Shown: positions 1,304 through 63,962, numbered from the whole stretch's first letter. The stretch is 63,962 bases of DNA, filler included, from Caldilineae bacterium (GCA_037446815.1; 3 parts of 3 records of this genome joined end to end with filler, not necessarily neighbours in it); one strand, 5' to 3'. A program made the numbers and translations. The notes: generated by a model not told the origin, from the letters alone.

Positions 1304-1323
1304 CTGCGCCCGGCCTGGGACTT

Positions 1324-2000
1324 GGTTCCATCTTGTGTTGGTCTGTCTTGCGCGCAGCCCTTGCGTCTTTGTCATGCTGAGCCGAGGACGAAGCATCTCG
1401 GCTGGGACGTATCCGCGGATGCCACGGATTGCGCAGAGTAGAGCAAGTTGGCAACTTGCTCTACGGGATTCCTCGCCCCCGCCGCTCAGAACGACACCAG
1501 CGCCCCTCGCCCGCCTCGGCGGGAGGGGGTCGGGGTGAGGGCGTTCACGTGCGACGCACTTCCGAAGTGCGTCGCACGTTGTCTCCCCTTGTCATGCTGA
1601 GCCGAGGACGAAGCATCTCGGCTGGGACGTATCCGCGGATGCCACGGATTGCGCAGAGTAGAGCAAGTTGGCAACTTGCTCTACGGGATTCCTCGCCCCC
1701 GCCGCTCAGAACGACACCAGCGCCCCTCGCCCGCCTCGGCGGGAGGGGGTCGGGGTGAGGGCGTTCACGTGCGACGCACTTCCGAAGTGCGTCGCACGTT
1801 GTCTCCCCTTGTCATGCTGAGCCGAAGGCGAAGCATCTCCAGGGTTGTATTCACGGATGGCACGGAAGGGGCAAAGCACACCTACGGGCGACCGGCCGGT
1901 TACCCCTATGTGCCCGCAGGTGGGAGATTCCTCGGCGCTTCGCGCCTCAGCGTGACAGACCGCTCCCTCGCCCTTCGGGAGAGGGCTGGGGTGAGGGGCT
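1324..2000. repeat. Mosaic palindromic repeat array containing an exact 220-bp tandem duplication
   Basis: 1369-1588 equals 1589-1808; contains GTAGAGCAAGTTG-G-CAACTTGCTCTAC (1438-1464, 1658-1684), ACGTGCGACGCACTTC-C-GAAGTGCGTCGCACGT (1547-1579, 1767-1799) and families A, B, D and F. Confidence 0.9.
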
Positions 2001-2012
2001 TCCGCCCACGCC

Positions 2013-2597
2013 CTACGGACGGCGGGGCGTTTCCGCCCGGTCCGTGCGCCGCTGCACCCGCTTGGCCATCAGAATATCCGGCTTGCCGGGGCCGTTGGCG
2101 TCGGGCACCACGCCGACAATCACAAACCCGACCTTCTGGTAGAACTCGTAGGGGTGGCCCTTCAGGTTGCGGATGCGCGCCAGGCGCCCAAAGGTGTCGT
2201 CGTACAGGTCCACCCCGGCCAGGCTCGTCATGCCGTCTTCGTCGTCGGTGCCGACCCACAGGGTCAGCGCGCCGCGCTCCGCAGCCAGCGCCTCCAGATC
2301 GGCCAACAACGCCCGCCCGATGCCCTTGCGCTGGTGGTTCGGATGCACGGCCAGGGGGTGCACCTCCCACACGTTGCCGCCGTATCCGGGGATGCCGCCG
2401 ATCCACCCCAGGACAACGCCCCGCTCCACCGCGATCCGACTGACGCGCCCCTCGGCGAAGGATTCGCGCACCTCGCGCAGGGCCGACTTCAGGTCAGGCC
2501 AGGCGGTCGGCCAATGCTCGCGGAACGCGGCGACAAGCAGCGCCGCTGCTTGCTGGACGGCATCCCAATCATCCGGCTGCAGGTCTGTAATCTCCAT
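2013..2597 (-). CDS. GNAT acetyltransferase, AAC(6')-Ia/Ii-like
   Basis: WEVHPLAV..QRKGIGRAL, VGTDDE, GHPYEFYQKVGF, DANGPGKPDILMAK; start MEITDL. Confidence 0.8.
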   Translation of the reverse strand: MEITDLQPDDWDAVQQAAALLVAAFREHWPTAWPDLKSALREVRESFAEGRVSRIAVERGVVLGWIGGIPGYGGNVWEVHPLAVHPNHQRKGIGRALLADLEALAAERGALTLWVGTDDEDGMTSLAGVDLYDDTFGRLARIRNLKGHPYEFYQKVGFVIVGVVPDANGPGKPDILMAKRVQRRTDRAETPRRP

Positions 2598-3267
2598 CGG
2601 CGGACTCCTTCTGCAACAGGGCAAGCAGATAATCGCGCACTTCGGTCAGCGACGGGAAGACCCGATGCGCCAGGGTCAAGGCTTCCGCGGAGGGCGGCTT
2701 CAAATCGGGAATCAGGATTGCGGTCATACCGGCGGCCCGCGCCGCGCGGATGCCGGCCTCCGAGTCCTCCAGCACGACGCACTCGTGGGCAGGCACGCCG
2801 AGCCGCTTCGCCGCCAGGAGGAAGACATCGGGCGCGGGCTTGCCGAGGGGGACCTCGTCGCCGCAGGCGATGGCGTCAAACCGCCCCGACAGCCCCGTGA
2901 GTTGCAACTTCTGCGCGACAAATCGGCGATGGGTGGAACTGGCGACGGCCTTGCGGATGCCGCGCACGTCCAGAGCGTCCAGGAGCGCGTGAAGACCGGG
3001 CTTCGTGGGGATGCCATCGCGCATGATGGCCTCGTCCAGATACTGCTGCTTGCGCGCGTAGGCGTCGTCCACGGGCAGGGAGGGGCCGAACGCACGGGCC
3101 AGGATGGCTTTGGTGTCCGCCGCCTCCCGCCCGATGAGTTGGAAGTAGAGGCTGTCGGGCAGCGCCAGGCCCCAGTCGGCCAGGGCGCGCCGCCACGCAT
3201 CCCGCGCCATGCGCTCCGAGTCCAGCATCAGCCCGTCCATGTCAAGAATGACGGCGGAATGCCTCAC
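2569..3267 (-). CDS. HAD-family phosphatase (beta-PGM/CbbY-like)
   Basis: DMDGLMLDSE, ASS, GKPAPD and LEDS..GI motifs; GTG start after GGAGGA. Confidence 0.9.
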   Translation of the reverse strand: MRHSAVILDMDGLMLDSERMARDAWRRALADWGLALPDSLYFQLIGREAADTKAILARAFGPSLPVDDAYARKQQYLDEAIMRDGIPTKPGLHALLDALDVRGIRKAVASSTHRRFVAQKLQLTGLSGRFDAIACGDEVPLGKPAPDVFLLAAKRLGVPAHECVVLEDSEAGIRAARAAGMTAILIPDLKPPSAEALTLAHRVFPSLTEVRDYLLALLQKESADGDYRPAAG

Positions 3268-3299
3268 CTCGTCCTCCCAAGCCCAGGAGACACCTGGCG

Positions 3300-3641
3300 C
3301 TATCCCCGCACGAAGTGGGGCATCGCCTCGGGAATCTCCAGCGACAGTTCCACAAATCCACGGTATTCGCCATCCTGGTACCACGGCGCCTGGTAGATCA
3401 GTTTGCGGACGCCGTTCTTCTCAATGGTGTAGACATTAGGCTTGCCCGACCCCAGCAGCCCGCGCAGTTTGGCGCGGGCTGGCTCCGGATGGCAGTCCAG
3501 TACGTTGCGGCCTATGAGCGCGCGCCCGCCGTCGGCTGCGAAAACCTGCGCGGCGCGGTCGTTCATGTCCAGGATGGTGCCATCCCTGTCGCAGACGGTG
3601 ATGGCGCCCGGGAATTCCCTTGTCCAGTCGGGTATCGGCAT
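3300..3641 (-). CDS. Small stand-alone PAS-domain protein
   Basis: AITVCDRDGTILDMN, LIGRNVLDCHP; GAGGAGG RBS before MPIPDW. Confidence 0.8.
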   Translation of the reverse strand: MPIPDWTREFPGAITVCDRDGTILDMNDRAAQVFAADGGRALIGRNVLDCHPEPARAKLRGLLGSGKPNVYTIEKNGVRKLIYQAPWYQDGEYRGFVELSLEIPEAMPHFVRG

Positions 3642-3762
3642 GTGGCCCTCCTCGTGGTGTCGTTTGGCGGCGCCCGGTTGCCGGCGATGCGGGCGCGTAC
3701 CACATGCTATCACAGGCGCCGCCGAACGGGCAAATTGCCGCCGCGCCGACTGTTGCTGCGCC

Positions 3763-4040
3763 GTGTGTGAGGCGCGGAGCGCCGAGGAATCTCCCACCTG
3801 CGGGTATATACGTGCGCGCAATGACGGACGGCGCGTTCACGTGCGACGCACCTCCGAGGTGCGTCGCACGTTGTCTCCCTCCTGTCCTGCTGAGCCGAAG
3901 GCGAAGAATCTCGCAAACCGAGACCCTTCGCTCCGCTCAGGGTGACAAGGCCCCACCGCCTAGCGCGGCGGCTTTAGCCCCGCGCTGTGCCACGCTTGTA
4001 CGGGCGCCCGGCCGGTCGCCCCTACAGGCGCGCAATAACG
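3763..4040. repeat. Mosaic palindromic repeat array (families B, E, D and a GCTTTAGC hairpin)
   Basis: Family E at 3839-3871, family B pair at about 3883-3947, family D GTACGGGCGCCCGGCCGGTCGCCCCTAC at 3998-4025. Confidence 0.85.
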
Positions 4041-4062
4041 GACGGCGCTTGTCGCCCCGCCA

Positions 4063-7000
4063 TCACGGCGTTACGGTGAACGCCGCGCCGCCGCTCCTGC
4101 CGAACGTCTCGGGGAAGTACATCTCGTAGGCCACCGCGGGCATGACGAGGTACTGCCCCGGCACGCTGGCGCGCAGCAGGTACGTGTACTCATACGTGCC
4201 CGCGGGCACCTCCCGCGCGAACAGCGCCACCTTCTCGTCGCGAATCTCCGTGTGCGAGAAGACCCACCAGCCCCAAACGTCGTCCGCGCCAGCCTTGCGG
4301 AACTGCGGCGGCTCCAACAACTGGCTGGTGGTGCGCAGGCTCGTATCCACGGCCTCGGTACCGGCCGGAATCGGATCCTCCACCACAAGGTAGTGCAGCG
4401 CGCTCGGGGCGATGACCGTCAGTTTGACGCGGATGACGTCGCCGACGGCGGCCGTGGCCACCTCGCGGCTCGGGTCGTCGGCCAGCGTGTACTCGCGCAG
4501 GACGATGACGCCGCGGCTCAACGGCCCTACCTGCTCCACGGGCAGGTAGTACTTGAGCGCCGCCGAGTAATACAGCGCGCCTTTCTCCGCCTGTCCGCCG
4601 GCCAGCGGCGATCGTTCCACGATGATGCGGTTGCCTACATCCTTGAGCAGGCTCTTCAGCGGGATGCGCACCACCTGCGGGGTGTCTACGTTTTCGGGCC
4701 GCACGTCGCCCGCCAGCACCCGCTTGCCGTTGACGCCCACCTGGTACCGATACTCGCCTTCCAGTTCGCCGGTCATGGCGGCGTAGTCCGTCAGGGCCAG
4801 GAGCGCCCATGCGTTCTCCTGGGTCGTGCCCCAGCGCCCGTCCTGTCGCGCGGCCATGAGCCAGCGGACTGCGTTGGGCAGCAGGGCGTTGTCCGGCGCA
4901 AGGCGCACCAGCGCCCGCAGGACGATGGCCGTGCTGCGCACGTCGGTGTTCATCAGGAAGCGGTCGGTCTGGGCTTCTTCCCAGTGGGCGCCCGTGGCGC
5001 TGACGATGGCCTGGCCGCTGAGTTCGGCGACCAGCGCGCGCACCTGGCCGGCATGGGCATCGCCCGCCGCCTGCAGCGCCATCGCCAGGTACGCCTTCCC
5101 GTAGTGCCCGAGCAGGTGCCGCTTTTCAAAGAGCGCCACGGATCGCGCCGTGTCCCCCTCGCCCAATTCGCCCAGCACATACAGCATGAAGGCGTGCTGA
5201 TTCGCGTCCGTCGCGTCCGCGATGTCCGCGACGTTGAGATTGGATTTGAGGTACTGTGTGCCGCGGTCCATCACCGACGCGTCCACGCCGAACCCCGCGC
5301 GCCGCGCCTCGTTCAGGCCCAGCAGCACGTAGGCGGTGATGTACGGGTGGCTGGTCTCGGTGTACCACCACCCCCATCCGCCGTCCATGTTCTGCGCGGC
5401 GTACAGTTTCTGCAGCCCCACCGCGACTAGGTCGGGCAGTTTGGCCTCCAACTCCTCGTTGCGGACGCCAAGCCGCTTGTAGGCTTGCCACGCGGCCACG
5501 TTCGGCAGGAAGCGGCTCACCGTCTGCTCGGCGCACTCGTAGGGGAAGTGCTCCAGGTAGCCCAGGGCCTCCCCCATGCCGGCGACAAGGGACGGATCCA
5601 CGCGCACGGTGAGATCGCCCTGCGACGGCTCGTACACATCGGGCAGTTGCACGAGTTCCACGCGCTGCTCGCCGGCCCCAACTTCGCCCGCCGTGGCGAC
5701 GACTTCCGGCGTCGTGAAGTGATGCACCGGCAGCGTGAGTGCGATGGCATCCTCCAGTCCGCCGCCTGTAACGCGCACGGATACGGTCATCTGCTCCTCC
5801 GCGCCAACGGTGCCGCTCCACGTGAGTTTCTGATAGCCCTTCGCGGGAATCTCCACGCTCTCGGAGCGGCCAAAGCCCGACTGTTCGCCGCGGGCGTCCA
5901 TCTGCACCTGCGCCTGGATGCTCTGGTCGGTGTTGTTGTGGACGATGGCGGCCAGTTCGGGCTTGTCGCCGATGACGAAGAACCGCGGCGCAACCACGCG
6001 CGCCAGCAGCGGCTTGGTAACCACGATGTCGGACGTGGACGAGCCGACCTGCGTGTTGGCCGTCGCGCCGTCGGCGATCATGCGCCAGGTCGTGAGCGAG
6101 TCGGGCAGGTTGACCGCAACGGTTGCCCTGCCCTGGGCATCGGTGCGCAGGGCCGGCTCCCAGTAGGCCGTGTCGGGGAAGTAGGTGCGCGCGGTCAGCG
6201 CCCCCTCCGCCCCGCCGCCGCCCTTGCCCTGGGCTGGCGGCTCCGCTTCGCGCTCCGCGACGGCGACGGTCAGGCTGGCGGCCGTCTGGATGCCCAGGCC
6301 GCGCTTGCGGTAGAAGAAGTCCATGATGTCCGGGCCGGGCCGCTGGGCCAGCGCCAACACCGACGCATCCACCAGCGCCAGCGACACCTCGGCAGGGACG
6401 CCTTGCCCGTTGGCGTCCAGCGTCTCCACGGTGAATTGCGCGGTCTCGCGCGGGCCGTAGGCTCCCGAACGCTCCGGCGTAACGCGGATGGTGAGATGCT
6501 TCTCGGCGGCCGAGACCTCAAGCGCCACGTACCCCACACGGAACGCCGCGAACGGCTCCGTTGTGCCCTTGCCCTTCACCAGCACGACCGAGACGTAGGC
6601 ATTCGGAATCAAGTCCTCGGTGATGGGAATCTCCACCTGCTCGCTGTTGCTCCGCAGCACGAGCACCCGATGGGACAGGATGCCTGCCCGCTCCACGGTG
6701 AGGAGCGCCGTTACCGGCCCCTGGAAGGGACTCGGGATGAGGATATGGGCCGTCTCGCCGGGCGCGTAACTCTTCTTATCGGCGATGAGTTCCATGCGGT
6801 TGTTGTTCTCCACGCGCCAGGCCACGTACTCGTCGCCCGCGCCCGAAACCCACAGGTACGTGGCGCTGCGGACTTCGTTGCCGCGCGCGTCGCGCCCCAG
6901 CGCCAGCACCCGGTAACTGCCGCCTTCGGGCGGGACGAACGAGGCCACCGCCGCGCCCTTGTCGTCCGTCGCGATGGTCTGGGTGAACACGGGCGTGTCG

Positions 7001-9918: not shown

Positions 9919-10035
9919 ACCGAGCCTCCTGGACATGAAAAAGCACGCCGAAGCGCGTGGACACTTCATACTCGTAGACGCATGGCGGGCGCGCTGGGTT
10001 CCCGCGCGGCGGGGCAGAATTCCGGCTAGGTTGCC

Positions 10036-10740
10036 CTATTGTCCCGCCCCCGGCTGCGCGTAGCGGAACTCAATCGTCCGGGAATAGATGGGGATCACCA
10101 GAGCGTCCGCGTCGGTGATGTCGGCCTGGAATCCCGGATGGGCGGCCTGGAGCGAGGCCAGCATCCCGCCCTTGCGCGTCAACGCGACTCGCAGCGTGTC
10201 GGGGTCGCCGAGCACCGCGAAGACAAACGGCCGGCTGATGAGGACGCCATCCACGGCGATGCCCGCCTCGGTGCCGACGATGGCCGAGGACACGACCAGC
10301 CGCTGGCCGTTGAGGGCGATGGCCTTCGCGCCGGAGTTCTTGAGTTCGTTGATCAGGTCCTGCAACTCGGTGGCGCTTACCGGGCTGCTGAGGGTGAGCG
10401 TGATGCCCGGTCCAGAAACCTCACTCATGCCAGTGATGAGTTTCAGCCGATTCAGTTCCTCCACCATGACGACCAGAGACCCGCCCTGCTGCCCGAGTTC
10501 AGCCAGTTTGGCCCGCAGGGAATCCACCTCCTCGCGCAACTTCCGGTTGGCGTCCACCAGCCCGCTGATGAGCGCTGCGCGGTCCGTGCTAGAGGCAGCC
10601 ACGCGGGCCGACCGCAGGGCGCTCTCGCTGCGGAACTGGGCGAAGATGAGCAGGCCCACAAGCACGAACAGCAGCGCCACCGGTATGCGCACGAACCAGT
10701 CGTCATGCCAGATTCTACGGAGATACTGCGACACTTGCAT
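10036..10740 (-). CDS. DUF881-family membrane protein
   Basis: N-terminal TM helix, coiled coil, VSGPGITLTL, DLINELKNSGAKAIALNGQR. Confidence 0.85.
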   Translation of the reverse strand: MQVSQYLRRIWHDDWFVRIPVALLFVLVGLLIFAQFRSESALRSARVAASSTDRAALISGLVDANRKLREEVDSLRAKLAELGQQGGSLVVMVEELNRLKLITGMSEVSGPGITLTLSSPVSATELQDLINELKNSGAKAIALNGQRLVVSSAIVGTEAGIAVDGVLISRPFVFAVLGDPDTLRVALTRKGGMLASLQAAHPGFQADITDADALVIPIYSRTIEFRYAQPGAGQ

Positions 10741-14615: not shown

Positions 14616-14792
14616 GTAGAGCAAGTTGGCAACTTGCTCTACGGTGCCCAATCTGTGCCATTCGCGGGGTACGGGCGACGGGCCGGTCGTCCGTGCACTA
14701 CGGCTCGCGAAGCGAAGCAATCGCACGCCCCGGGGATTGCTTCGGGCACTGCGTGCCCTCGCAATGACAGCCACCAACAGACTCTGGAACCG
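14616..14792. repeat. Mosaic repeat array: GTAG palindrome, family D, GCGAAGCAATC..GATTGCTTC..CCTCGCAATGAC and a right-hand F terminus
   Basis: Palindrome at 14616-14642; D-like copy at 14669-14696; CCAACAGACTCTGGAACC at 14774-14791. Confidence 0.85.
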
Positions 14793-14810
14793 GCTCTCCC
14801 CCGCAGAGGC

Positions 14811-14974
14811 GGTTCCATCTTGTGTTGGTCTGCCCCGCACGCCACCTCCCCGCTCTGCAATGCTGAGCCGCTGGCGATACGCCCTCGCCCTTCGGGAGAG
14901 GGCCGGGGTGAGGGGCGAGATTCTTCGCTCTCCGCCGCTCAGAATGACGGTAGATGCCAACAGACTTTGGAACC
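14811..14974. mobile_element. 164-bp MITE-like element with 18-bp imperfect terminal inverted repeats (family F)
   Basis: Left end GGTTCCATCTTGTGTTGG, right end CCAACAGACTTTGGAACC (14/18 inverted match); a same-length close copy lies at 63767-63930. Confidence 0.7.
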
Positions 14975-14994
14975 GAGCCTACCGCCCCGCACCC

Positions 14995-15024
14995 TTGCCG
15001 CCTGCGCTGGCCCCGTGGTATAAT
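14995..15024 (+). promoter_or_regulatory. Sigma70-type promoter of the MTase-like gene
   Basis: TTGCCG, 18-nt spacer, TATAAT with an extended TG. Confidence 0.65.
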
Positions 15025-15093: not shown

Positions 15094-17439
15094 ATGGCCG
15101 CAAAGGTGGATTCCTTCATCCCGCCGCAGGCCCGCACCGGCGCGGGCTTCCTTGAGTCCTATCTGCCGCCCCTGGCAGAGAACGTTCTGGCTGCGTACAT
15201 AGAGGGGCTGACCTCGCCCGGCGACCTGGTGCTAGACCCCTTCTGCCAGTCGCCCGCCGTCGTCCGGGCCGCGGCATCACTGGGCCGACGGGTCATCGCC
15301 AGCAGCGCCAATCCCATAGACGCCTTCGCCGTGCGCCAGACGCTGGCTCCCCCGCCCGAGAAACAACTCAACGCCGCGGCCACCGCCCTCGGCCAGACCC
15401 TGCGCGGCAACGTTCTCCTCCGCGAGCATATCCTGCGGCTGTACCGATGCGCGTGCCCCTCGTGCCGCCGCATGGCCTTTGCCGACTACTTCGTCTGGGA
15501 CCTGGAGCGCAACATGCCGATTGAGAAGTACGTGCGGTGCGCCGCGTGCGGGTTCCAGGGTTCGGCCAGCATCCAGGCCGACGATCTTGCCACCCTGGAG
15601 CAGATTGAGGGCAAGGGGCTGAGTTACTTCTTCGTGCTGGACCGACTCTCGGCGTCGGGCGACCCGGCAAGGCAAGAAGGTGAGGCGGCGCTCAAGTTCT
15701 ACACCAATCGCGCCCGCTATGCCCTCACGCAGATGGTCCTCAAGACCGAGGCGGAGTTCGCCAACACGCCGGAGGAGAGCATCCTCAAATATCTGCTGCT
15801 GGCGTGCATGGTACGGGGTGGCCTGTTCAATCGCCCGCCCGCGGGCAAGGATATGCCGGCCCTCCGCGCGAGCGGCTTGGGCCTGGAGCGCAACGTGTGG
15901 CTCCTCTTTGAAGAGGCGTGGGCCGAGTGGCGCGCCACTCTCCCGGCGCCGCCTGTGGCGGGCTTGAGCCCCCGGGCCGACTCCCAAGGCATAGCCGAGG
16001 TGCTGGCCGGCGGGGCCGCGCACAGCGCCATCGCGCTCCATTGCCCCATCCGCGACCTCGCCCGCATTTTGCCGGTCCAGAGCGTGCGGCTCCTCATCAC
16101 CGGATTGTCCAACATCGGCCAGCGCTATTGGCGGCTCTGCTTCCTGTGGGCGGGCTGGCTGTTCGGGAGGGAAAGCGCGGCGCACCTCAAGCCCCTGCTG
16201 GGCCAACCCATCCCCGACTGGGCGTGGTATGTCCGCACGGTGGGCGGGGCGTTCCAGGCGCTGCGGCCCAAACTGCACCCCCACGGCCACATGGTGCTGC
16301 TGGTTTCGCCACGGCGCAGCACCCAGGCCGAGGCTGCGCTCATGGCCGGTGTGGTGGGGGGATTCCGCCCCGTCGCCCATGTGTACGGGCCGCGAACGGT
16401 GGCGGATGCCGCGCAGGGCGCCGGAGACTACCAAATCGTCCTGGCCAAAGGCGCGGAGATTCTGGAAGGGGTAACGCGCCCCCCCGACGCGGGGTTTCTG
16501 CGCGGCGAAATCAGGGACGAGGCCGAGCGGGGAGCCCAACAGGCGCTGGCCCAGCGGGGCGAACCCTCGCCCGCGGGATGGCTGCGCCACGGGGCATTCA
16601 CCCGCCTTGCCCAGCGCGGCCTCCTCCAGCGCGCCCTGCTGCCCAGAGACGAACGGCATTCCGGCTACGAGGTCATTCAGAAGGCCGTGGAGGAAGCCCT
16701 CGGCAAGGACGCGCAAGATCCCCTGGTGCCCATGGAGTGGGAAGCCCACTTCGCCCCCGACGCCACGCTCCCGATGCTGTGGCTTCGGCGGCCCTCGGAC
16801 GTGGCGGCGCCGCTGGCCGACCGCGTGGAGGCAGCCGTGGCCGAGATTCTGCGCGAGACGCTGATGCTGCGCCGCGAGGACTGCGAGCGCGAAGCGTACC
16901 GCCGATTCCCGAGCCTGCAAACGCCGGAGCAGGACTTGGTGCGCGCGTGCCTGGAATCCTACGCGGAGGAGACATCCCCCGGCTGGGTTCGGCTCCGCGA
17001 CGAAGACCAGCCGGAGCGCGTCCGCCTGGCGGTGGCGGCGTTCATCGCGGACATGGACGCGCTGGGGAAGCGCATGGGGCTTCGGGTCATCGCCGACAGC
17101 CCGCCGTACCACGTGGTGTGGGCCGCCGACGGGACGCGCCATGGGTTCCTCTTCTCGCCCATGGCCGTTGTCCACACGCTGGCGGCGCTTGGCCCGCGCG
17201 ACGAGGACACGACCCGCTACCTGGTGATTCCCGAGGCGCGCGTCGCGCTCCTGCGGCTCAAACTGCGGCGCTCGCCCATCTACGGCCGCTTGCTGGAGCA
17301 AGGCGGGTGGGCCATCATCCGCTGGCCGCTGCTCCAGGCGCTGCTCAAACTCCCCGCGGTGGACATCCACGCGCTGAAACAGGTGGTGGGGCTGGAGCCG
17401 ATCATGGAGCAAGGCGAGGCGCAGATTCCGCTGTTCTGA
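15094..17439 (+). CDS. Degenerate N6/N4 DNA-methyltransferase-like protein with a zinc ribbon
   Basis: GDLVLDPFCQSP...LGRRVIASSANP resembles motif I; CPSC...CAAC zinc ribbon; the expected DPPY position appears to read LLITGLSN. Confidence 0.6.
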   Translation: MAAKVDSFIPPQARTGAGFLESYLPPLAENVLAAYIEGLTSPGDLVLDPFCQSPAVVRAAASLGRRVIASSANPIDAFAVRQTLAPPPEKQLNAAATALGQTLRGNVLLREHILRLYRCACPSCRRMAFADYFVWDLERNMPIEKYVRCAACGFQGSASIQADDLATLEQIEGKGLSYFFVLDRLSASGDPARQEGEAALKFYTNRARYALTQMVLKTEAEFANTPEESILKYLLLACMVRGGLFNRPPAGKDMPALRASGLGLERNVWLLFEEAWAEWRATLPAPPVAGLSPRADSQGIAEVLAGGAAHSAIALHCPIRDLARILPVQSVRLLITGLSNIGQRYWRLCFLWAGWLFGRESAAHLKPLLGQPIPDWAWYVRTVGGAFQALRPKLHPHGHMVLLVSPRRSTQAEAALMAGVVGGFRPVAHVYGPRTVADAAQGAGDYQIVLAKGAEILEGVTRPPDAGFLRGEIRDEAERGAQQALAQRGEPSPAGWLRHGAFTRLAQRGLLQRALLPRDERHSGYEVIQKAVEEALGKDAQDPLVPMEWEAHFAPDATLPMLWLRRPSDVAAPLADRVEAAVAEILRETLMLRREDCEREAYRRFPSLQTPEQDLVRACLESYAEETSPGWVRLRDEDQPERVRLAVAAFIADMDALGKRMGLRVIADSPPYHVVWAADGTRHGFLFSPMAVVHTLAALGPRDEDTTRYLVIPEARVALLRLKLRRSPIYGRLLEQGGWAIIRWPLLQALLKLPAVDIHALKQVVGLEPIMEQGEAQIPLF

Positions 17440-17567: not shown

Positions 17568-17608
17568 ATAACATACGGCAGGTACAGGGCGCACCTGCCG
17601 CATCCAGG

Positions 17609-17680
<72 letters not shown>

Positions 17681-17693: not shown

Positions 17694-17722
17694 ATTATAC
17701 GCGAGAACGGCAGGCTCGTCAA
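17694..17722 (-). promoter_or_regulatory. Strong sigma70 promoter of the tRNA pair
   Basis: TTGACG (17717-17722), 17-nt spacer, TATAAT (17694-17699). Confidence 0.85.
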
Positions 17723-17742
17723 ACCCGACCCCTTTGGGATTC

Positions 17743-17935
17743 GGCTCCAACGTGTGCGGGTGTGCGCTGTCATCCCGAGGCGCGAAGCGCCGGGGAACCT
17801 CCCTCCTGCGGGCCCATATTATGTAGGGGCGACCGGCCGGTCGCCCCTACATGCTCGCAATGACGGACGGCGCGGTAACGTGCGCCGTACTTCCGAAGTC
17901 CGTCGCACGTTATTTATTCGCGCAGATTCGCGGAT
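17743..17935. repeat. Mosaic repeat array (degenerate F end, B, perfect D palindrome, E, G)
   Basis: Perfect palindrome ATGTAGGGGCGACCGGCCGGTCGCCCCTACAT at 17821-17852; family E at 17878-17910. Confidence 0.85.
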
Positions 17936-19410: not shown

Positions 19411-19857
19411 ACGGCGCGTGGGTGGCAGGGAAGGGCTGAAACTCACCGCGGAGAACGCGGCGAACGCGGAGAGACACAGAAGAACCTCTGCCTTCTTTGC
19501 GCTCTCCGCGGTGCAGAATCCCATTCGTGCGGATTCGTGTTATTCGTGGAGGCTGTCCCTTTGACCCCGTTCGCGGGATGTCTCCTACGGCGCGTGGGTG
19601 GCAGGGAAGGGCTGAAACTCACCGCGGAGAACGCGGCGAACNNNNNNNNNNNNNNNNNNNNNNNNNNNNNNNNNNNNNNNNNNNNNNNNNNNNNNNNNNN
19701 NNNNNNNNNNNNNNNNNNNNNNNNNNNNNNNNNNNNNNNNNACGGCGCGTGGGTGGCAGGGAAGGGCTGAAACTCACCGCGGAGAACGCGGCGAACGCGG
19801 AGAGACACAGAAGAACCTCTGCCTTCTTTGCGCTCTCCGCGGTGCAGAATCCCATTC
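19411..19857. repeat. Tandem copies (about 176-bp period) of a CACCGCGGAGAACGC..GCTCTCCGCGGTG hairpin repeat (family G) spanning the scaffold gap
   Basis: 19411-19526 matches 19742-19857; a partial copy at 19587-19641 runs into the Ns. Confidence 0.85.
19642..19741. other. Scaffold gap (100 N)
   Basis: Run of Ns flanked on both sides by the same repeat. Confidence 0.99.
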
Positions 19858-19910
19858 TGGTGCGGAACGCGGGGCGCACTTCGGAAGGGCGTCGCGCGGT
19901 GGGTTTTCCG

Positions 19911-23728: not shown

Positions 23729-23828
23729 NNNNNNNNNNNNNNNNNNNNNNNNNNNNNNNNNNNNNNNNNNNNTTAATTAATTAANNNNNNNNNNNNNNNN
23801 NNNNNNNNNNNNNNNNNNNNNNNNNNNN
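23729..23828. other. Artificial contig linker
   Basis: 44 N, TTAATTAATTAA (stops in all six frames), 44 N. Confidence 0.97.
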
Positions 23829-47422: not shown

Positions 47423-47522
47423 NNNNNNNNNNNNNNNNNNNNNNNNNNNNNNNNNNNNNNNNNNNNTTAATTAATTAANNNNNNNNNNNNNNNNNNNNNN
47501 NNNNNNNNNNNNNNNNNNNNNN
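47423..47522. other. Artificial contig linker
   Basis: 44 N, TTAATTAATTAA, 44 N. Confidence 0.97.
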
Positions 47523-57017: not shown

Positions 57018-57477
57018 GTTCTTCCTCCGCAGTCTTGCGTATGAGGCGGCGCGCCTTGTCCGGACTCAAGTTGCCATAGGTGCGCCCGTCCACGACCATC
57101 ACGGGCGCCAGGCTACATGCACCGAAACAGGCGATTTTCTCCACCGTGAACAGGCCATCGGGGGTGGTGTCCTCGCCACTCCCCAAGCGCAGTTCGCTCT
57201 CCACCGCCGTAACGATGAGCGGCGACCCACGCACATGGCATGCGGTGCCCCGGCATATCTTCACGTTGTGCTTGCCCATGGGCCGCAGCCGAAACTGGGC
57301 GTAGAACGACAGGACGCCAAAGACCTCGCTGGCGGGGATGCGCAGTTTGTCGGCGATGGCGTAGATGGCGTCCTCGGAGACGTATCCTTCGGCCTCCTGG
57401 GCCTTTTGCAGGAGGGGGATGAGGTCTCCCTTGCCGGTTACGGGCGCTTGCAGGACCTCTCGGAGTTTATCGTTCAA
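57010..57477 (-). CDS. NuoE/HylC-like [2Fe-2S] subunit
   Basis: LIPLLQ, CRGTAC, CFGAC; TTG start after AAGGAGG. Confidence 0.9.
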   Translation of the reverse strand: MNDKLREVLQAPVTGKGDLIPLLQKAQEAEGYVSEDAIYAIADKLRIPASEVFGVLSFYAQFRLRPMGKHNVKICRGTACHVRGSPLIVTAVESELRLGSGEDTTPDGLFTVEKIACFGACSLAPVMVVDGRTYGNLSPDKARRLIRKTAEEEHA

Positions 57478-57647
57478 CGTGGCCTCCTTTCGGGCGCGGT
57501 TTCGCGGCGCGAGCGCCGGATGGTCGGATGCGACACGCTGGGGATTGCTGGAGAGGCACCGAGAGGGCGTGGATGGCTCTCGGGCATCATGTCGGCTACA
57601 TTGCACAACATGGCGGCTTCTCTCCAACAGGATGATGAAGTGAGCGC

Positions 57648-57676
57648 ATTATACGACGGAATGCCCGCCCCGTCAA
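57648..57676 (-). promoter_or_regulatory. Sigma70 promoter of the fdh operon
   Basis: TTGACG, 17-nt spacer, TATAAT. Confidence 0.8.
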
Positions 57677-57725
57677 GGATTGTGCAGCGAGGTGCGGTTG
57701 CGAAGGGCGTCGGCGGCGCGGTCGT

Positions 57726-57752
57726 GTAGGGCGACCGGCCGGTCGCCCGCAC
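57726..57752. repeat. GTAG-type palindrome (family D)
   Basis: GTAGGGCGACCGGCCGGTCGCCCGCAC. Confidence 0.75.
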
Positions 57753-57914
57753 ATGCGCGCAACCGCGACGAATTTCGTTGGGCAAATTGCCAATTTGCCC
57801 AACTTTGCCCCATCCGCGCTATTCGTAGATGACGGCCCCCGTTCCCCAACCCGCCCTGTGGGGCGCAGGCGGGGCCCGCCCGATTGTCCTCCCCGACGCT
57901 TGGCGGCGAATCCT

Positions 57915-58829
57915 CTACGGCGCGGGCGGCGTTGGCAGCGCGATGAGCGGCGTGAGGCCCTCGCTGGGCAGGATGCCCCAACTGACCCCGGTCAACTGCT
58001 TGATAAACTCCAGTTGCAGCACCTGCGGGTACTTCTCCAGCGCCTTGCCGCGCTCCTCAATGGCCTGGGCATCGCCGCGGGCGCGCTCAATCTCGGCTTG
58101 GGCGTCGCCTTTAGCGCGTTCAATCTCGGCTTGCGCTTCGCCTTTGGCCAACTCCACGGTCTTCTCGGCCTGATAGGTGGCGGCCTGGGCCTGGTAGCGG
58201 GCGGTCTCTATCTGCTCCTGGGCGATCTGCTGCTGCTCAATGGCGGCGATGTAATCGTCGTCAAAGGCGATTTTGCGGAGGGCGAAACTGTCCAGGATTA
58301 CGCCCTTCTCGGCGAACAACGTGTGAAGCCGCTGCCCGATGTCGGCCTCCACGTTGAAGACGTCGCCGCTGTACAGTTGCTGGGCGGGATAGCGTTGCAT
58401 GGTCAGGCGCACCACGCTGCGCGAGTGGAACTTCACGACGCGCTCCGTAACCATGGTCATGTTCTCGCCCACCTTGGCATAGACGTCGCGGATGTTCTCC
58501 TTCGGCACGTAGAAGCGCACGCTGAAGGTTACGGTGATGGGCTGGCCGTCGGAGGTCTGGGCGTCCACGAAGACATCGCGGAAGTCGGCGCGGCTTTCCC
58601 CGGGCTCGCGCGAGGTCTCATAGACCATGCCGCGCGTGCTGAAGCAGTTGAATTGCTGCGCGATGGGGATGCGCAGGTGGAAGCCCGGGCCGGCGACGCC
58701 GGTTACCTCGCCGAACGTGGTTACGGCGCACGCCTCGCCAGCATCCACCACGCGGGCGAACCCGGTGGACGCCAGGATGATCACCAGCACGAGCAACACG
58801 ATGGCGAGTGGGCCGAGTCTGCGGGACAT
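57915..58829 (-). CDS. SPFH/prohibitin (band 7) family protein
   Basis: N-terminal TM helix, GPGFH..P, TSDGQ, 11-aa AKG.AQAEIER coiled-coil repeats; AAGGAGG RBS. Confidence 0.9.
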   Translation of the reverse strand: MSRRLGPLAIVLLVLVIILASTGFARVVDAGEACAVTTFGEVTGVAGPGFHLRIPIAQQFNCFSTRGMVYETSREPGESRADFRDVFVDAQTSDGQPITVTFSVRFYVPKENIRDVYAKVGENMTMVTERVVKFHSRSVVRLTMQRYPAQQLYSGDVFNVEADIGQRLHTLFAEKGVILDSFALRKIAFDDDYIAAIEQQQIAQEQIETARYQAQAATYQAEKTVELAKGEAQAEIERAKGDAQAEIERARGDAQAIEERGKALEKYPQVLQLEFIKQLTGVSWGILPSEGLTPLIALPTPPAP

Positions 58830-58919
58830 TTTTCCTCCTTCGGTGGGCACGGTGGTAACGAATCGGATGTTGGGTTTCTTTTGCATAGGCTGCCTCGCTG
58901 TACAGGGACTTTGGGGCCA

Positions 58920-58948
58920 ATTGTAGCAGGTGCGAGGCAGGGCGGCAA
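58920..58948 (-). promoter_or_regulatory. Sigma70-type promoter of the SPFH gene
   Basis: TTGCCG, 17-nt spacer, TACAAT. Confidence 0.6.
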
Positions 58949-58968
58949 ATGCCGGGGTGTCTGGACTA

Positions 58969-59108
58969 GGTTTCATCTTGTGTTGGTGAGACGCATGGGC
59001 ACTCTCCTCGTGTGTCGTTGCGAGCGAAGCGAAGCAACCTCACGCTCCAGAGATTGCTTCGGGCGCTCCGCGCCCTCGCAATGACAAATACCAACAGACT
59101 TTGGAACC
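58969..59108. mobile_element. 140-bp family F MITE-like element with different internal cargo
   Basis: GGTTTCATCTTGTGTTGG ... CCAACAGACTTTGGAACC enclosing GCGAAGCAACCT..GATTGCTTC..CCTCGCAATGAC. Confidence 0.65.
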
Positions 59109-59119
59109 GAATCGGCGTC

Positions 59120-59265
59120 TGGTATCCGCGGATAGCACGGATTGGCGCGGACAGGGGCGGGAGATTCTTCGCGGCTTCGCCGCTCAGAATGGCGGGGCCG
59201 TTGGTTACGTGCGACGCACTTCGGAAGTGCGTCGCACGTTGTGGCCCCATCTGTCATGATGAGCG
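59120..59265. repeat. Mosaic repeat array (G, B, E)
   Basis: Family E palindrome at 59207-59239; family B arm at about 59160-59190. Confidence 0.8.
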
Positions 59266-59609
59266 GGCAGCGTGCCCGGCGCGCCGCGACATGAGGCAAA
59301 GCCCAATTGGTGCAAATTCCTTGTTCCAGAACCCAAAATGTGTGATATAATGGGTGCAGGGCTCTTGACGAACCTTCGGGCCACGGTCATTGACCCGTCC
59401 GCGCCCGCGGGGTATTGGGGCGGCGACCCCGATACCGCAGGGAGCGCGGCGTGGAGTCGGTTTCGCGCCCGCGTCGGCGCCATTGCGGCAGGGGTCGCTT
59501 CTGAGGAAGCCGCGTATCATGGACTCTGCGAGGGCGTTCGCGCCCGCCGCACTGATGGGCCTTCTCCGGTGTTCTCTCGCACATCACTCGCTTGAACGAA
59601 GGCAAGGGT

Positions 59610-60953
59610 ATGACCCGAGATCGCGCGACGCACAACATGCCTGAAGCCCCGTCCTTGCCTTGCGCTGCGCCGGCGGGGCGGGTCGCGCGCGTGAGGGTGG
59701 GGATCGCGGCTGCGACCCTGGCGGCGGGCTTGGCGCTGGCTGCGTGTCGCGGTGCGACGGCCCCTGTGCCCACGCAGACGCCTGTGGCCGTCCCTACGGC
59801 CAGCGCCGTGGCGACTTCCCCGGCCCCCCAGACTTCGCCCACGCCTGCCGCGTCTCCCATGACGCTCTACGTCTGGGTGTCGTCGGACTTCGCGGCTGCG
59901 GTCGGGGCCAACGGCGCGGCTGTGCAAGGGTTCAACGAGATGTATCCGGGCGTTCGCGTGCACGTCGCCGTCAAGGAAGCCTACGGCAAGGGCGGCCTGA
60001 CGGATTTGCTGGCGGGCGCCAGTCGGGTGGCCCCGCTATACTTGCCCGACCTGGTCTTGACGACCGAGGACAGCCTGGCGGAGATCGCCGCGCTCGGCTT
60101 GCTTCAGCCCGCCGACGCGCTCCTGCCCACCGCGCGCGATGCGCTCTTCCCCAACATTGGGAGCGCGGCCCGTCTGGGCATCCCCTTTGCGATGGATTTC
60201 CCGCTCCTGGCCTATCGCCCGCCCATCACGTTGCCCCTGTCGTGGGATGCCATTGCGGCCGGCGGGGGGCGCTATGCGTTCGCCGCGGGCAACGAGGACG
60301 CGTCGGTGCAGGCGCTGCTGGTACAGTACCTTGCGTTGGGCGGCTCGCTGGTGGACGCTGAAGGCGAGCCGTCGCTGGATAGCCGCCTCCTGACCCGTGC
60401 GCTGGAAATCTACCGCGATTTGGACACGTGGGGGGTTCTCGCCCCGGAAGCGGCATCGCTGGACAACGTGGGCGAGGTGTGGGACCTGTACGAAGCGGGG
60501 CGCGTCAACTTCGCCGCCGTCTTGGTGTCGCAGGTTCGGCGGAACGCGGCGGCCCTGGGCGACACGGCGCTGTTGGCGTTTCCCGCGCCCGACGGTCGCC
60601 CCGCCACCCTGGCGCGCGTGTGGGCGTGGGCGGTTGTGTCGCGCGCCCCGGAAAGGCAGCAGGCCGCCGCCCGATTCCTGGAGTGGGTCCTTCAGCCCGC
60701 GCAGCAATCGGCCTGGTGCGATGCCGCGGGGTTTGTGCCCACGCAGCCGTCGGCCTGGCCTCTTGCGCGACTATCCCCGACGCACAGCGAGTTCCTGTTG
60801 AGCCTGGCGCAGGCGGCGACTCCGTATCCCCCCGCGCTGCGGACCGGCGCCGTTTCGTCGGCGCTGCGCACGGCGCTTGCGCAGGTCCTTGCAGGGCAAC
60901 TCTCTCCGCGCCAGGCCGCCGACCAGGCTTTGGCCAAGATCCGTCAACAGTGA
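59610..60953 (+). CDS. Extracellular solute-binding lipoprotein (sugar ABC family 1-like)
   Basis: Lipobox LAAC, Pro/Thr linker, PDLV, GIPFAMD, AAARFLEWV; start codon uncertain. Confidence 0.75.
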   Translation: MTRDRATHNMPEAPSLPCAAPAGRVARVRVGIAAATLAAGLALAACRGATAPVPTQTPVAVPTASAVATSPAPQTSPTPAASPMTLYVWVSSDFAAAVGANGAAVQGFNEMYPGVRVHVAVKEAYGKGGLTDLLAGASRVAPLYLPDLVLTTEDSLAEIAALGLLQPADALLPTARDALFPNIGSAARLGIPFAMDFPLLAYRPPITLPLSWDAIAAGGGRYAFAAGNEDASVQALLVQYLALGGSLVDAEGEPSLDSRLLTRALEIYRDLDTWGVLAPEAASLDNVGEVWDLYEAGRVNFAAVLVSQVRRNAAALGDTALLAFPAPDGRPATLARVWAWAVVSRAPERQQAAARFLEWVLQPAQQSAWCDAAGFVPTQPSAWPLARLSPTHSEFLLSLAQAATPYPPALRTGAVSSALRTALAQVLAGQLSPRQAADQALAKIRQQ

Positions 60954-60960
60954 GGTGGAC

Positions 60961-62337
60961 GTGGCGTACCCATTGGGCTTCGTGCGCAACATACCGGAGA
61001 ACCCCGTGGAGACTCGCCACCGCGAGGATGCCGCCGCGCTGATGCGGGCGGCGCTGGAAGCGGTGGACCCGCGCCTCGCCATCCACAGGATGCTGCGCCT
61101 CTCGGAGGGTGTGCTCCACGTGCGGGGCAAGACCTACGACTTGGGGCGCTATCGCAGGGTCGTGGTTGTGGGGGCGGGCAAGGCGGCTCCCGCGATGGCG
61201 TCGGCGGTGGAGGAGATTCTGGGCGACCGCATCGCCGAGGGCCTGGTGATCGCCAAGCGCGGGCAGCTGGCCGGCTACGTGGGTCATCGCATTCAGGTTG
61301 TGGAGGGGAGCCATCCCACGCCCGACGAAGCCGGTCTTCAGGGCGCGCAGCGGATCGCGGACATGCTGGAACCGCTGGGGCCGCACGATTTGGTTATCGG
61401 CCTGTTCTCCGGAGGCGGCTCGGCGCTCCTCACGCTTCCCGCCCATGGCATCCGCCTGGCCGATTTGCAGGAACTGACCCAGGCCCTGCTGAAATCGGGC
61501 GCAACCATCAATGAAATCAACTGCGTGCGGAAGCACCTGTCGCTGGTCAAGGGCGGGCAACTGGCCAGGCTGGCCCATCCGGCCACGGTCATCTCGCTCA
61601 TCCTGTCCGACGTGGTGGGCAGCCCGCTGGATGTCGTCGCCTCCGGCCCGACGGTTCCCGACCCCACCACCTTTGAGGATGCGTGGCGCATCCTGGAACG
61701 GTACAACCTCATCCGGGGGCTGAACCCCAACATCCGCGGGCGATTGCAGGCCGGGATGGCAGGCGCCGTTCCCGAGACGCCCAAGGAAGGCGATGCGGCG
61801 TTTCGCAATGTGCACAACGTCATCATCGGCAGCAACGAACTCGCGGCGGCGGCAGCGGTGGCCGAGGCGCGCAACCGGGGGTACAACACGCTTCTGCTCA
61901 CCACGTACCTGGAGGGCGAGGCGCGGCACGTGGCGCGGGCGCTGGCCGCCATCGCCAAGGAGTGCGCGCACAGCGGCAATCCCGCGGCGCCGCCCGCGTG
62001 CATCGTGGCCGGCGGCGAAACGACCGTTACCGTAACCGGCAGCGGCGCAGGCGGGCGTAATCAGGAACTGGCCCTGGCAGCCGCCATCGCACTGGAAGGC
62101 TGGCAGGATGTGGCGTTGGCGACCCTGGCGACCGATGGCGGCGACGGCCCCACCGACACGGCAGGCGCCTTCGTAACCGGCGAGACCGTGGCGCGCGCCC
62201 GCGCTCTGGGCCTCGCGGCCAGGGACTACTTGACTAACAACGATTCGTATGCCTTCTTCCAGGCGCTAGGAGATCACGTGATGACCGGCCCCACGGGAAC
62301 AAACGTGAACGACCTCGCGTTTGTCCTGGTGGGTTGA
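60961..62337 (+). CDS. Glycerate 2-kinase (MOFRL/GckA/TtuD family)
   Basis: GAGKAA, SGGGSAL, VKGGQLA, SDVVG, GGETTV, GGRNQE, TGTNVND. Confidence 0.93.
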   Translation: MAYPLGFVRNIPENPVETRHREDAAALMRAALEAVDPRLAIHRMLRLSEGVLHVRGKTYDLGRYRRVVVVGAGKAAPAMASAVEEILGDRIAEGLVIAKRGQLAGYVGHRIQVVEGSHPTPDEAGLQGAQRIADMLEPLGPHDLVIGLFSGGGSALLTLPAHGIRLADLQELTQALLKSGATINEINCVRKHLSLVKGGQLARLAHPATVISLILSDVVGSPLDVVASGPTVPDPTTFEDAWRILERYNLIRGLNPNIRGRLQAGMAGAVPETPKEGDAAFRNVHNVIIGSNELAAAAAVAEARNRGYNTLLLTTYLEGEARHVARALAAIAKECAHSGNPAAPPACIVAGGETTVTVTGSGAGGRNQELALAAAIALEGWQDVALATLATDGGDGPTDTAGAFVTGETVARARALGLAARDYLTNNDSYAFFQALGDHVMTGPTGTNVNDLAFVLVG

Positions 62338-62366
62338 AATACCCGACGCACCGAGGAGGAACCGTT

Positions 62367-63644
62367 ATGTTTGAGACAGCCCTCAAGGCTGATGCCAGGC
62401 GGCGTATCCGACAGATCGGCAGGGCGGACCTCGTCGCCGGCATCCCCACCTACCGCAACGCCAAGACCATCGCCGCGCTGGTGCAACAGGTGTCCATGGG
62501 CCTCGCGGCGCATTATCCCGATTTGCGGATGGTGCTGGTGGTGGCCGATGGGGGATCCACCGACGACACGGTAGAGGCGGCCTCGGCCCCGCCCATGCCC
62601 GACACCGTCAGGCGCATCGTAACGGGCTACCACGGCGTTACAGGGCGTGGCAGCGCCGTGCGCGCCATATTCCAAATGGCGACGGCGCTGGAGGCCGACG
62701 CATGCATCGTCCTGGACGGCGACCTGAAGGCCATGCCGCCCTGGTGGGTACAGGCGCTCGCGGGCCCGGTCCTGTCGGGCGACTACGAGTACGTTACGCC
62801 CTACTACACCTATCCGCGCACGGAAAGCGGGCCCATAGACCTCCTCGCCTACCCGCTGCTTCGGGCGCTGGTGGGCCGGGATGTGCGCCAGCCCACCGCC
62901 GACGTGTTTGGCGTGTCCGGGGAACTGGCGGGGCATTTCGCCGACAAGGACGTGTGGGAGACCGAGGTGGCGCGGGCCGGCGTGGGCGTGTGGATGACAG
63001 CCATCGCCATCCAGGAGGGGCGGCGCATCGGGCAGGCGGCCCTCGGCACCCGCCGACATGAGTCGCGGGAACCGTCCACAACCACAGACCAGGCGTTCTC
63101 GCAGATGGTTGGCACGCTGTTCCGCATGGCCTATATCCTCCGCAAGACGTGGCTCACGTTCCCGCAGGTGCAACCCACGCCCATCGTCGGCAGCGTCCCG
63201 CTTCAACAGGCGGATCGGGGCATCCTTACCGAGATGTACTTGAGCGAGCGATTCCGCCAGGCATCCAAGCGCCACCGCCGCCTGTGGCAGGTGGCCCTCA
63301 CACCCGAGCACCTGGACGAGATACGCGACATCCTCGACCGGCCGAACGAGGGGTTCTGCTTCCCCGACGACCTGTGGGCGCGGTGCGTGTACGACTTCAT
63401 CGTCGTGTACAACAAGGGCGAGGCCGACCCCGACCGGGTGGTGGAGGCTCTTATCCCCCTCTGCTGCGCGCGGCAACTGGCCTTCCTGCAGGAAACGCAG
63501 GGGATGTCGGTTGAGGAGAGCGAGCGCGTCGTGGCGCGGCAGGCGGACGCCTTCATCCGCCAGCGCCCGTACCTCCGCGAGCGCTGGGAGGTGTACGTGC
63601 CCTGGGCGACCGGCCCCAACGCCTCGCCGGCCAGAGGCTCGTAG
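62367..63644 (+). CDS. Glucosyl/mannosyl-glycerate synthase-like glycosyltransferase
   Basis: GIPTYRN, ADGGSTDDT, GRGSA, DGDL, VTPYY, VRQP, W.TEVAR.GV; GAGGAGG RBS. Confidence 0.7.
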   Translation: MFETALKADARRRIRQIGRADLVAGIPTYRNAKTIAALVQQVSMGLAAHYPDLRMVLVVADGGSTDDTVEAASAPPMPDTVRRIVTGYHGVTGRGSAVRAIFQMATALEADACIVLDGDLKAMPPWWVQALAGPVLSGDYEYVTPYYTYPRTESGPIDLLAYPLLRALVGRDVRQPTADVFGVSGELAGHFADKDVWETEVARAGVGVWMTAIAIQEGRRIGQAALGTRRHESREPSTTTDQAFSQMVGTLFRMAYILRKTWLTFPQVQPTPIVGSVPLQQADRGILTEMYLSERFRQASKRHRRLWQVALTPEHLDEIRDILDRPNEGFCFPDDLWARCVYDFIVVYNKGEADPDRVVEALIPLCCARQLAFLQETQGMSVEESERVVARQADAFIRQRPYLRERWEVYVPWATGPNASPARGS

Positions 63645-63766
63645 CGGGGTTAGAGCCGCCGCGCGGGGGGCACCCCCAGTTCCCTCGCCCACCGGGAGAG
63701 GGTGAGGGTGAGGGCCGCGCGGGGGAAAACCTCACCCCCGGCCTTCAGCCTCCCGCGGTGCGACTC

Positions 63767-63930
63767 GGTTCCATCTTGTGGTGGTCTGCCCCGCGCGCCG
63801 CCTGTCCACTCTGTCATGCTGAGCCGAAGGCGATACGCCCTCGCCCTTCGGGAGAGGGCTGGGGTGAGGGGCGAGATTCTTCGCTCTCCGCCGCTCAGAA
63901 TGACGGTAGATGCCAACAGACTTCGGAACC
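63767..63930. mobile_element. 164-bp family F MITE-like element
   Basis: Close copy of 14811-14974; TTGACA follows at 63952. Confidence 0.7.
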
Positions 63931-63962
63931 GCCCCCGCGGTGAGGCGGGGCTTGACACTCGG

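Follow-up and report, generated by a model that had tools for sequence, protein, structure and literature searches.

We analysed a 63,962-nucleotide (nt) stretch of DNA from a Caldilineae bacterium (GCA_037446815.1), referred to below as the window, in which copies of a short repeat, family F, lie beside predicted promoters of several unrelated genes. A reading of the sequence alone (the sequence-only reading) had proposed that an 18-bp terminus of this family, about CCAACA-N6-GGAACC, sits 20–21 nt upstream of the −35 box. The fixed promoter distance of family F termini is real: the gap was read at four termini in the window (1324, 14974, 58969 and 63930), and it recurs as a sharp peak in other genomes. 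Coordinates count from the first nucleotide of the window, which has a G+C content of 63–70% and consists of joined contigs (N runs at 19642–19741, 23729–23828 and 47423–47522, with a TTAATTAATTAA linker between two of them), so that distances across the joints are meaningless. The features concerned are the following, all promoter elements being predictions.

1324 (−), 14774 (+), 14811 (−), 14957 (+), 58969 (−), 59091 (+), 63767 (−), 63913 (+): good 18-mer termini, by pattern match
1275..1318, minus strand: target side at the ilvE-type gene; 8-nt duplication position 1311–1318, 7-nt spacer, −35 TTGACC 1298–1303, 17-nt spacer, −10 TAACAT 1275–1280
1319..1341, minus strand: solo inverted repeat of family F; 18-mer 1324–1341 plus 5 nt 1319–1323, exact pattern match
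14707..14796, plus strand: right part of an older F copy with a C-type interior; inverted repeat 14774–14796, exact terminus, 9 nt from copy B
14806..14979, plus strand: complete F copy B; inverted repeats 14806–14828 and 14957–14979, exact termini
14980..15024, plus strand: target side of copy B; 8-nt position 14980–14987, 7-nt spacer, −35 TTGCCG 14995–15000, 18-nt spacer, −10 TATAAT 15019–15024
17694..17760, minus strand: degenerate F-type terminus (17743–17760, three mismatches) and GAATC 17738–17742, gap 20, then the tRNA promoter; −35 TTGACG 17717–17722, 17 nt, −10 TATAAT 17694–17699
57671..57713, minus strand: weak candidate terminus at fdh (57696–57713, three mismatches), gap 19, −35 TTGACG 57671–57676, 17 nt, TATAAT
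58920..58963, minus strand: target side of copy C; duplication position, spacer, −35 TTGCCG 58943–58948, 17-nt spacer, −10 TACAAT 58920–58925
58964..59113, plus strand: complete F copy C; 150 bp with its 5-nt ends, flanking 8-mers 7/8 alike
63762..63935, plus strand: complete F copy D; flanking 8-mers 63754–63761 and 63936–63943, 7/8 alike
63952..63957, plus strand: TTGACA hexamer past copy D, 21 nt from the 18-mer; candidate −35 with its −10 position beyond the window end

The loose terminus pattern with up to three mismatches matched the window 69 times against 56.6 expected, which is no enrichment; the genuine repeat ends are the eight matches with 0–1 mismatch (six exact, two with one). 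They pair as inverted repeats into copies B (14811–14974), C (58969–59108) and D (63767–63930; all 18-mer edges), which leaves unpaired the solo terminus at 1324 and the partial older copy ending at 14791 (18-mer edge). A −35-like hexamer follows 20–21 nt past the 18-mer in four of the eight (gap 20 at 1324, 14974 and 58969, gap 21 at 63930), and a −10-like hexamer follows 17–18 nt past the −35 in three of these four, the fourth running off the window. Among the other four termini, 14774 (+) and 14811 (−) face each other with 9 nt between the element ends, and the remaining two adjoin other repeats, with no promoter there. The window holds 15 strict promoter-like sites, and three of these have a good terminus at gap 20 (about 0.003 expected by chance).

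The gene behind the promoter at 1275..1318 (312–1229) is a class IV aminotransferase (Pfam PF01063, E = 1.9e-47) and that behind the promoter of copy C (57915–58886) encodes an SPFH protein (PF01145, E = 1.3e-27), in agreement with the names first given to them. The open reading frame (ORF) downstream of copy B (15094–17439), earlier labelled methyltransferase-like, had no Pfam match at E ≤ 1e-5. The three weaker cases of the sequence-only reading fared differently. Upstream of tRNA-Met (17607–17680) the terminus is degenerate, and its gap of 20 to TTGACG-17-TATAAT holds; the fdh case, with a gap of 19 to a promoter of the same form and three mismatches in its terminus, is plausible and possibly an eroded F copy; the supposed terminus at the PAS gene (3754) mismatches at 5 of the 12 specified positions and is not supported.

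Promoter distance and element anatomy in related genomes

We scanned 400 Anaerolineae genomes and found the exact pattern in 28 of them, with many copies in five. The comparison genomes named here (G002, G054, G065, G077, G097 and G230) are all Anaerolineae, G002 being a metagenome-assembled genome labelled Caldilineales; G054 and G097 are relatives of the window (80–81% DNA identity over a 2.4-kb gene) and are ~95% identical to each other. Together with the window, these two yielded 184 matches with at most two mismatches, from which 47 were dropped for an interior unlike the family. The remaining 137 termini gave 123 distinct flanks once 14 duplicates or orthologues had been removed, and promoters were called from the consensus, by a strict or a relaxed rule, within 75 nt of each terminus.

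Under the strict rule a promoter was called in 41 of the 123 flanks, at 19–21 nt in 25 of these and at exactly 20 nt in 16; under the relaxed rule the call was made in 57 flanks, 38 of them at 19–21 nt, that is, within 3 of 76 positions (binomial P = 1e-39). Shuffled flanks gave 0.01 (strict) and 0.10 (relaxed) calls at 19–21 nt, and reverse-complement flanks gave none there. The peak, which is what the distance histogram proposed earlier was meant to reveal, is also visible without a promoter model: 27/123 flanks have a TTG beginning at position 20 and nine have one at position 21, against a background of 1.7 per position. TAnnnT lies 16–18 nt past the TTG in 33/40 cases when the TTG is at 19–21 and in 6/64 when it is elsewhere. 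An end faces a promoter in 35 of the 64 distinct paired elements, and both end types do so (24/72 and 21/51 flanks), as had been claimed for left and right termini. In G077, 6 of 17 termini have a promoter at 19–20 nt. A test of promoter function by the presence of a downstream ORF was uninformative in DNA of 65% G+C (long frame in 38/38 promoter-facing and 75/84 other flanks).

The terminal inverted repeat is 23 bp long, the 18-mer plus a conserved GAGTC-like 5-mer, and is followed by an 8-bp target duplication. As the 5-mer is part of the inverted repeat, the true element end lies 5 nt beyond the 18-mer, and the 20-nt gap comprises the outermost 5 nt of the inverted repeat, the 8-nt duplication and then 7 nt where the target is unaltered. 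The statement that the gaps share no sequence thus needs amendment for their first 5 nt. The duplicated 8-mer has no consensus. Measured from its true end, the element lies 15–16 bp upstream of the −35 in the window, in G054 and G097 and in G077. In G002, with 48 distinct paired elements, the flanking 8-mers were alike at 8/8 positions in 30 and at 7/8 in four, and at a control offset at no more than 4/8. In the 64 paired elements of G054, G097 and the window, they were alike at 7/8 or more in 15 and at 5/8 or more in 29, the control offset reaching 5/8 in 2/64 and never exceeding it. The promoter bias is present also in the elements with duplications of at least 7/8 (8 of 15).

The element is non-coding, with a length of ~100 bp in the related genomes (modal size 91 bp between outer 18-mer edges, 30 of the 64 paired elements) and 150–174 bp in the window; G054 has 54 termini, G097 57 (one mismatch) and G002 105. 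The two end types share only a 14-of-18 core and the GAGTC-like 5-mer. Family F thus consists of many short non-coding copies that are bounded by inverted repeats and flanked by target duplications, and a full-length element has the same ends; by these features it is a miniature inverted-repeat transposable element (MITE), whose 23-bp ends match those of an insertion sequence of ~1.5 kb. The hairpin repeat family represented at window 1547–1581 also supplies the core of the 91-bp MITE of G054 and G097.

A second register lies about 10 nt closer to the promoter. In G002, 33 of the 48 paired elements have a promoter at 6–14 nt; the strict rule placed 21 of 24 calls at 8–13 nt (0.125 in shuffles) and the relaxed rule 36 of 43 at 8–14 nt. 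In this genome and in most full-length copies the element end is ~5 bp from the −35. In G230, 6/7 flanks at one end type open with CAA within one base of the duplication start, the mirror image of a duplication whose last three bases are the −35 TTG. We also collected 80 metagenomic full-length copies with 116 distinct flanks. The relaxed rule gave a promoter within 40 nt in 42 flanks, 22 at 8–13 nt and 5 at 19–23 nt; TTG was at position 10 in 15/116 flanks (background 2.2), and a −10 element accompanied 19/34 TTG at 8–12 against 4/48 elsewhere. Within genomes, too, full-length copies were found by eye in both registers.

The promoters are older than the insertions. At the ilvE-type gene, the 15094 ORF and the SPFH gene, −35 and −10 are conserved in G054 and G097, where no F element is found, and their homology with the window extends only to a point just ahead of the −35 (14992 at the 15094 ORF). 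The relatives thus have these promoters without the element, which places the promoters before the insertions. At one G054 insertion the G097 site is empty and has the promoter; it is the single clean polymorphic site. The target duplications and this site answer the suggestion to compare empty and filled sites, and, with the peak in independent genomes and the conserved promoters, they bear out the proposal of insertion at the upstream edge of promoters.

Other candidates for empty sites did not hold. L215/L272 proved to be a common insertion with an internal deletion, L249 and L253 are insertions common to G054 and G097, the sites of L205 and L193-left are complex, and the empty-site search for L191 gave no match.

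The transposase and known promoter-directed elements

The sequence-only reading had suggested a search for a nuclease or transposase gene bounded by these termini, and a transposase gene so bounded was found in G065, where two termini 1.5 kb apart enclose a 427-amino-acid (aa) ORF in an element of 1521 bp with ends as in family F. The protein matches Pfam PF00872 (Mutator family) at 24.4 bits against a gathering cut-off of 21; two other members score 27.9 and 37.9 bits, and the same family is precomputed for most of the 120 homologues listed. In 16 sequences D170, D233 and E353 are invariant and C254-x2-H257 is conserved, the latter fitting the Mutator C/D(2)H signature as given in PMC3942029; a catalytic role is assigned by position only. 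Homologues at E ≤ 1e-5 numbered 1698 among 8000 scored, mostly on contigs of insertion-sequence size, and a copy of the transposase is present in 14/400 Anaerolineae genomes.

The lineage was delimited with the ISKra4, ISLre2, IS256 and ISH6 models, the ISAzba1 and ISMich2 groups being outside the comparison. Two NCBIfam models, IS256 (best E 5e-13) and ISH6 (best E 1e-14), match all 16 F-type members, with scores far under the curated cut-offs (38 bits vs. 150 and 240), so that the members are not IS256 in the strict sense (NF033543, 38 bits vs. 150). The IS256_N_4Cys model, an N-terminal four-cysteine zinc-binding domain, matched 13/16. The ISKra4 model matched 0/16 F-type members and 7/7 control ISKra4 proteins from Anaerolineae, and the ISLre2 model matched one of 16 (E = 6.5e-5). 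Profile comparison with the ISKra4 group gave 88% probability (E = 2.9e-6) over 222 columns including the N-terminal zinc ribbon, which amounts to remote homology.

The sequence-only reading knew of no described element with this behaviour. Such elements have in fact been described: Guerillot et al. (2014, PMC3942029) report insertion 13–17 bp ahead of the −35 box of sigma-A promoters for TnGBS integrative and conjugative elements (ICEs), for the ISLre2 family and for 13 ISKra4-group insertion sequences, and publications on promoter-aimed bacterial transposition go back to 2009 at the latest (Brochet et al., cited in that paper). The element ends of the window, G054, G097 and G077 fall within this published range; the ~5-bp spacing of G002 and most full-length copies lies outside it. 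The same paper gives p-MULT elements direct repeats of 8 or 9 bp and inverted repeats of 18–39 bp ending in C, and family F agrees with both (an 8-bp duplication and a 23-bp repeat ending in GAGTC). It describes elements with nearly complementary repeats as inserting in both orientations, and places the ISKra4 group within p-MULT 4, reported from Chloroflexi among other phyla. A signature motif that includes a conserved Asp between domains N1 and N2 is given there as a figure.

The ISKra4 group is the closest in habit: a Mutator-like DDE transposase, inverted repeats of this length with a terminal C, 8–9-bp duplications, and insertion upstream of promoters in both orientations. It differs in that F-type proteins belong to PF00872 and not UPF0236, that most F-type copies lie ~10 bp closer to the −35, and that the window copies are all non-coding MITEs. 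TnGBS and ISLre2 insert 15–17 bp upstream of the −35, and contact with the RNA polymerase initiation complex has been proposed for TnGBS by its authors, as a proposal only (PMC3942029); unlike family F, they insert in one orientation, are found mainly in Firmicutes and include large conjugative elements. By the family models, the F-type transposases belong neither to p-MULT 3 nor to the ISKra4 group of p-MULT 4. IS256 and ISH6 (p-MULT 1 and 2) are alike in giving the best family-model matches, in their 8–9-bp repeats and in the four-cysteine N-terminal domain, and unlike in their published targets, which are random for IS256 and AANATNTT for ISH6, not promoters (PMC3942029).

Homing to the upstream edge of a promoter is thus an already described behaviour, and family F matches TnGBS, ISLre2 and ISKra4, as these are described in that paper, in every testable respect but the transposase family. 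New here are the transposase lineage in which the habit is seen, its occurrence as a MITE and the second register; a literature search, at the level of titles and abstract openings, found neither promoter targeting for the PF00872-type lineage nor a MITE with such a habit. An analogy with Ty3, which integrates at a fixed distance from a transcription start signal and so avoids genes, is drawn in PMC3942029; Ty3 differs in having a retrotransposon integrase, a eukaryotic host and Pol III factors as tether, and the likeness is in logic only.

ISKra4-family transposases are themselves common in Anaerolineae (12/151 genomes above the curated cut-off), and two promoter-homing Mutator-like families may coexist there. 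Besides Ty3, other eukaryotic elements are tethered to the transcription machinery.

Proposed mechanism and rival explanations

Family F is very probably a MITE moved in trans by a Mutator-superfamily transposase that prefers a fixed site upstream of the −35. The ~1.5-kb insertion sequence would encode the 427-aa DDE transposase with its N-terminal four-cysteine zinc ribbon; supplied in trans, this enzyme would move the non-coding copies of the window, making staggered cuts 8 bp apart and strongly preferring sites that lie a constant distance ahead of the −35 hexamer in sigma-70-type promoters. The element end would come to lie 15–16 bp before the −35 in the lineage of the window and ~5 bp before it in most other members, where the duplicated 8-mer would end in the TTG of the hexamer. 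Either way, insertion would leave the promoter intact and disrupt no gene. We infer that this transposase family moves the copies of the window. Intergenic regions could then fill with repeats without gene loss because insertion homes to the upstream edge of the promoter.

Several observations weigh against this account. Every promoter considered here is a consensus prediction; a search for RNA runs that contain the locus listed none. Of the distinct paired elements, 29 of the 64 have no promoter call at 17–23 nt, some sitting elsewhere, such as a copy on a ribosome-binding site. The MITE and the insertion sequence are alike only in their ~23-nt ends. No transposase of the F-type family lies within the window, nor in G054, G097, G077 or G002 at E ≤ 1e-30, assuming the same 400-genome sample. 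Full-length copies are mostly in the 5-bp register, whereas the window copies are in the 15-bp register, and the registers form no separate clades in a FastTree phylogeny of 86 transposases. Among the metagenomic copies, 43 had both flanks, and a matching 8-bp duplication was present in only 8 of these; the remaining 35 are control-like, for which chimeric assembly may be responsible. Selection, finally, would remove insertions within genes, and the promoter bias could partly arise after insertion.

Random insertion followed by selection would have copies land anywhere in intergenic DNA and survive only just outside the promoter. In its favour, several repeat families pack the intergenic regions right up to promoters. 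Selection, however, predicts a minimum distance and not the peak of 38/57 relaxed calls in three positions, and the bias is the same in elements with near-perfect duplications (the 8/15 given above, and G002 with 7–8/8 duplications in 34/48 elements and a promoter-facing end in 33/48); we regard it as highly improbable. Very unlikely, too, is the alternative of the sequence-only reading, in which the element spreads an activator or UP-like site contained in its terminus, and copies that happen to lie at the right distance are retained for the higher promoter output they give. With more A and T than the genome (65% G+C) and an end near −50, the terminus could suit such a role; yet the two end types face promoters equally often while sharing so little sequence, related copies work 10 bp nearer to the promoter, the relatives have the same promoters without the element, and no binding protein is known. 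Such a site is not needed, and nothing specific favours it. Chance juxtaposition in a repeat-rich, promoter-poor window could draw on the lack of enrichment of the three-mismatch pattern, but 0.003 pairs were expected where 3–4 were seen, and replication in four further genomes and in the metagenomic copies refutes it, leaving it a negligible probability.

With insertion by a promoter-preferring transposase retained, two explanations of the sensing step remain to be weighed. By analogy with TnGBS, the enzyme may dock on promoter-bound RNA polymerase or sigma, a possibility to which we give nearly even chances. It might instead read a TTGACA-like hexamer itself and cut at a fixed offset without RNA polymerase, selection clearing the non-promoter hits in genes; we consider this possible, if on the whole doubtful. 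TT(G) is the only strong flank signal near the cut, the duplicated 8-mer in the common register ends in TTG, so that the enzyme touches the hexamer, and the mirror signal CAA is found at the opposite end, all of which suit direct reading. The −10 element that accompanies 33/40 of the TTG at 19–21 lies ~23 nt farther on, beyond the likely reach of the enzyme, and speaks against direct reading, but selection against gene insertions could produce the same pattern. The existence of two registers, ~10 bp apart, is as compatible with docking on a single face of some larger complex as with direct reading.

On a broader scale, we suggest tentatively, and short of conviction, that a large Mutator-like lineage outside the ISLre2 and ISKra4 models, with more than 1,600 metagenome relatives (E ≤ 1e-5), homes to promoters, either independently or by ancestry, in two registers one helical turn apart (~5 and ~15 bp). 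If so, the register spacing would mean that the enzyme docks on one face of the promoter complex and does not follow a fixed DNA word, and the MITEs of this lineage would be natural markers of active promoters in uncultured Chloroflexota. Family F would add to the promoter-aimed habit a second, distantly related set of enzymes, with hundreds of natural insertions and a register shift of ~10 bp. Register variation between populations could separate docking on RNA polymerase from direct reading of DNA, and element ends already point to likely promoters in uncultured Anaerolineae.

Individual copies and neighbouring repeats

Copy B is 93% identical to 63766–63931 (repeat family D6) and holds other small repeat modules, and the older copy at 14707..14796 groups with 59024–59109 in another family (D17, 86% identity). 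The two F elements separated by 14797–14805 stand ahead of one promoter, and the duplication of copy B is unrecognisable; two successive hits on one promoter would fit this arrangement. The solo end at 1319..1341 faces the ilvE-type promoter, its other end lost among other repeats, and adjoins a perfect 220-bp tandem duplication (1369–1588 and 1589–1808, together 1369–1808) that contains several small repeat modules. In an insertion common to G054 (L201) and G097 (L223), the F copy lies on the ribosome-binding site, and its duplication GAGGAGTA stands directly before the ATG, so that the gene keeps its ribosome-binding site.

Other repeat families of the window have no fixed promoter distance: the palindrome at 14616–14642 ends 25 nt, and the hairpin repeat at 17878–17912 ends 36 nt, before a −35. 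The latter is one of the G+C-rich hairpin repeats, which lie at 1547–1581, 1767–1801, 3839–3873, 17878–17912, 19867–19901 and 59207–59241. Three 40-bp tandem units occupy 3–135, and their reverse complement recurs inside copies B and D and at 1962–2018. Between the two relatives, L296 (G097 contig C71, ~61334–61843) contains ~500 bp that are absent from L193 (G054), and the alignment pieces overlap by 8 nt; the segment may be another insertion with an 8-bp duplication. L252 (G097 contig C152) matches G054 on both strands in mirror order, which looks like a palindromic mis-assembly.

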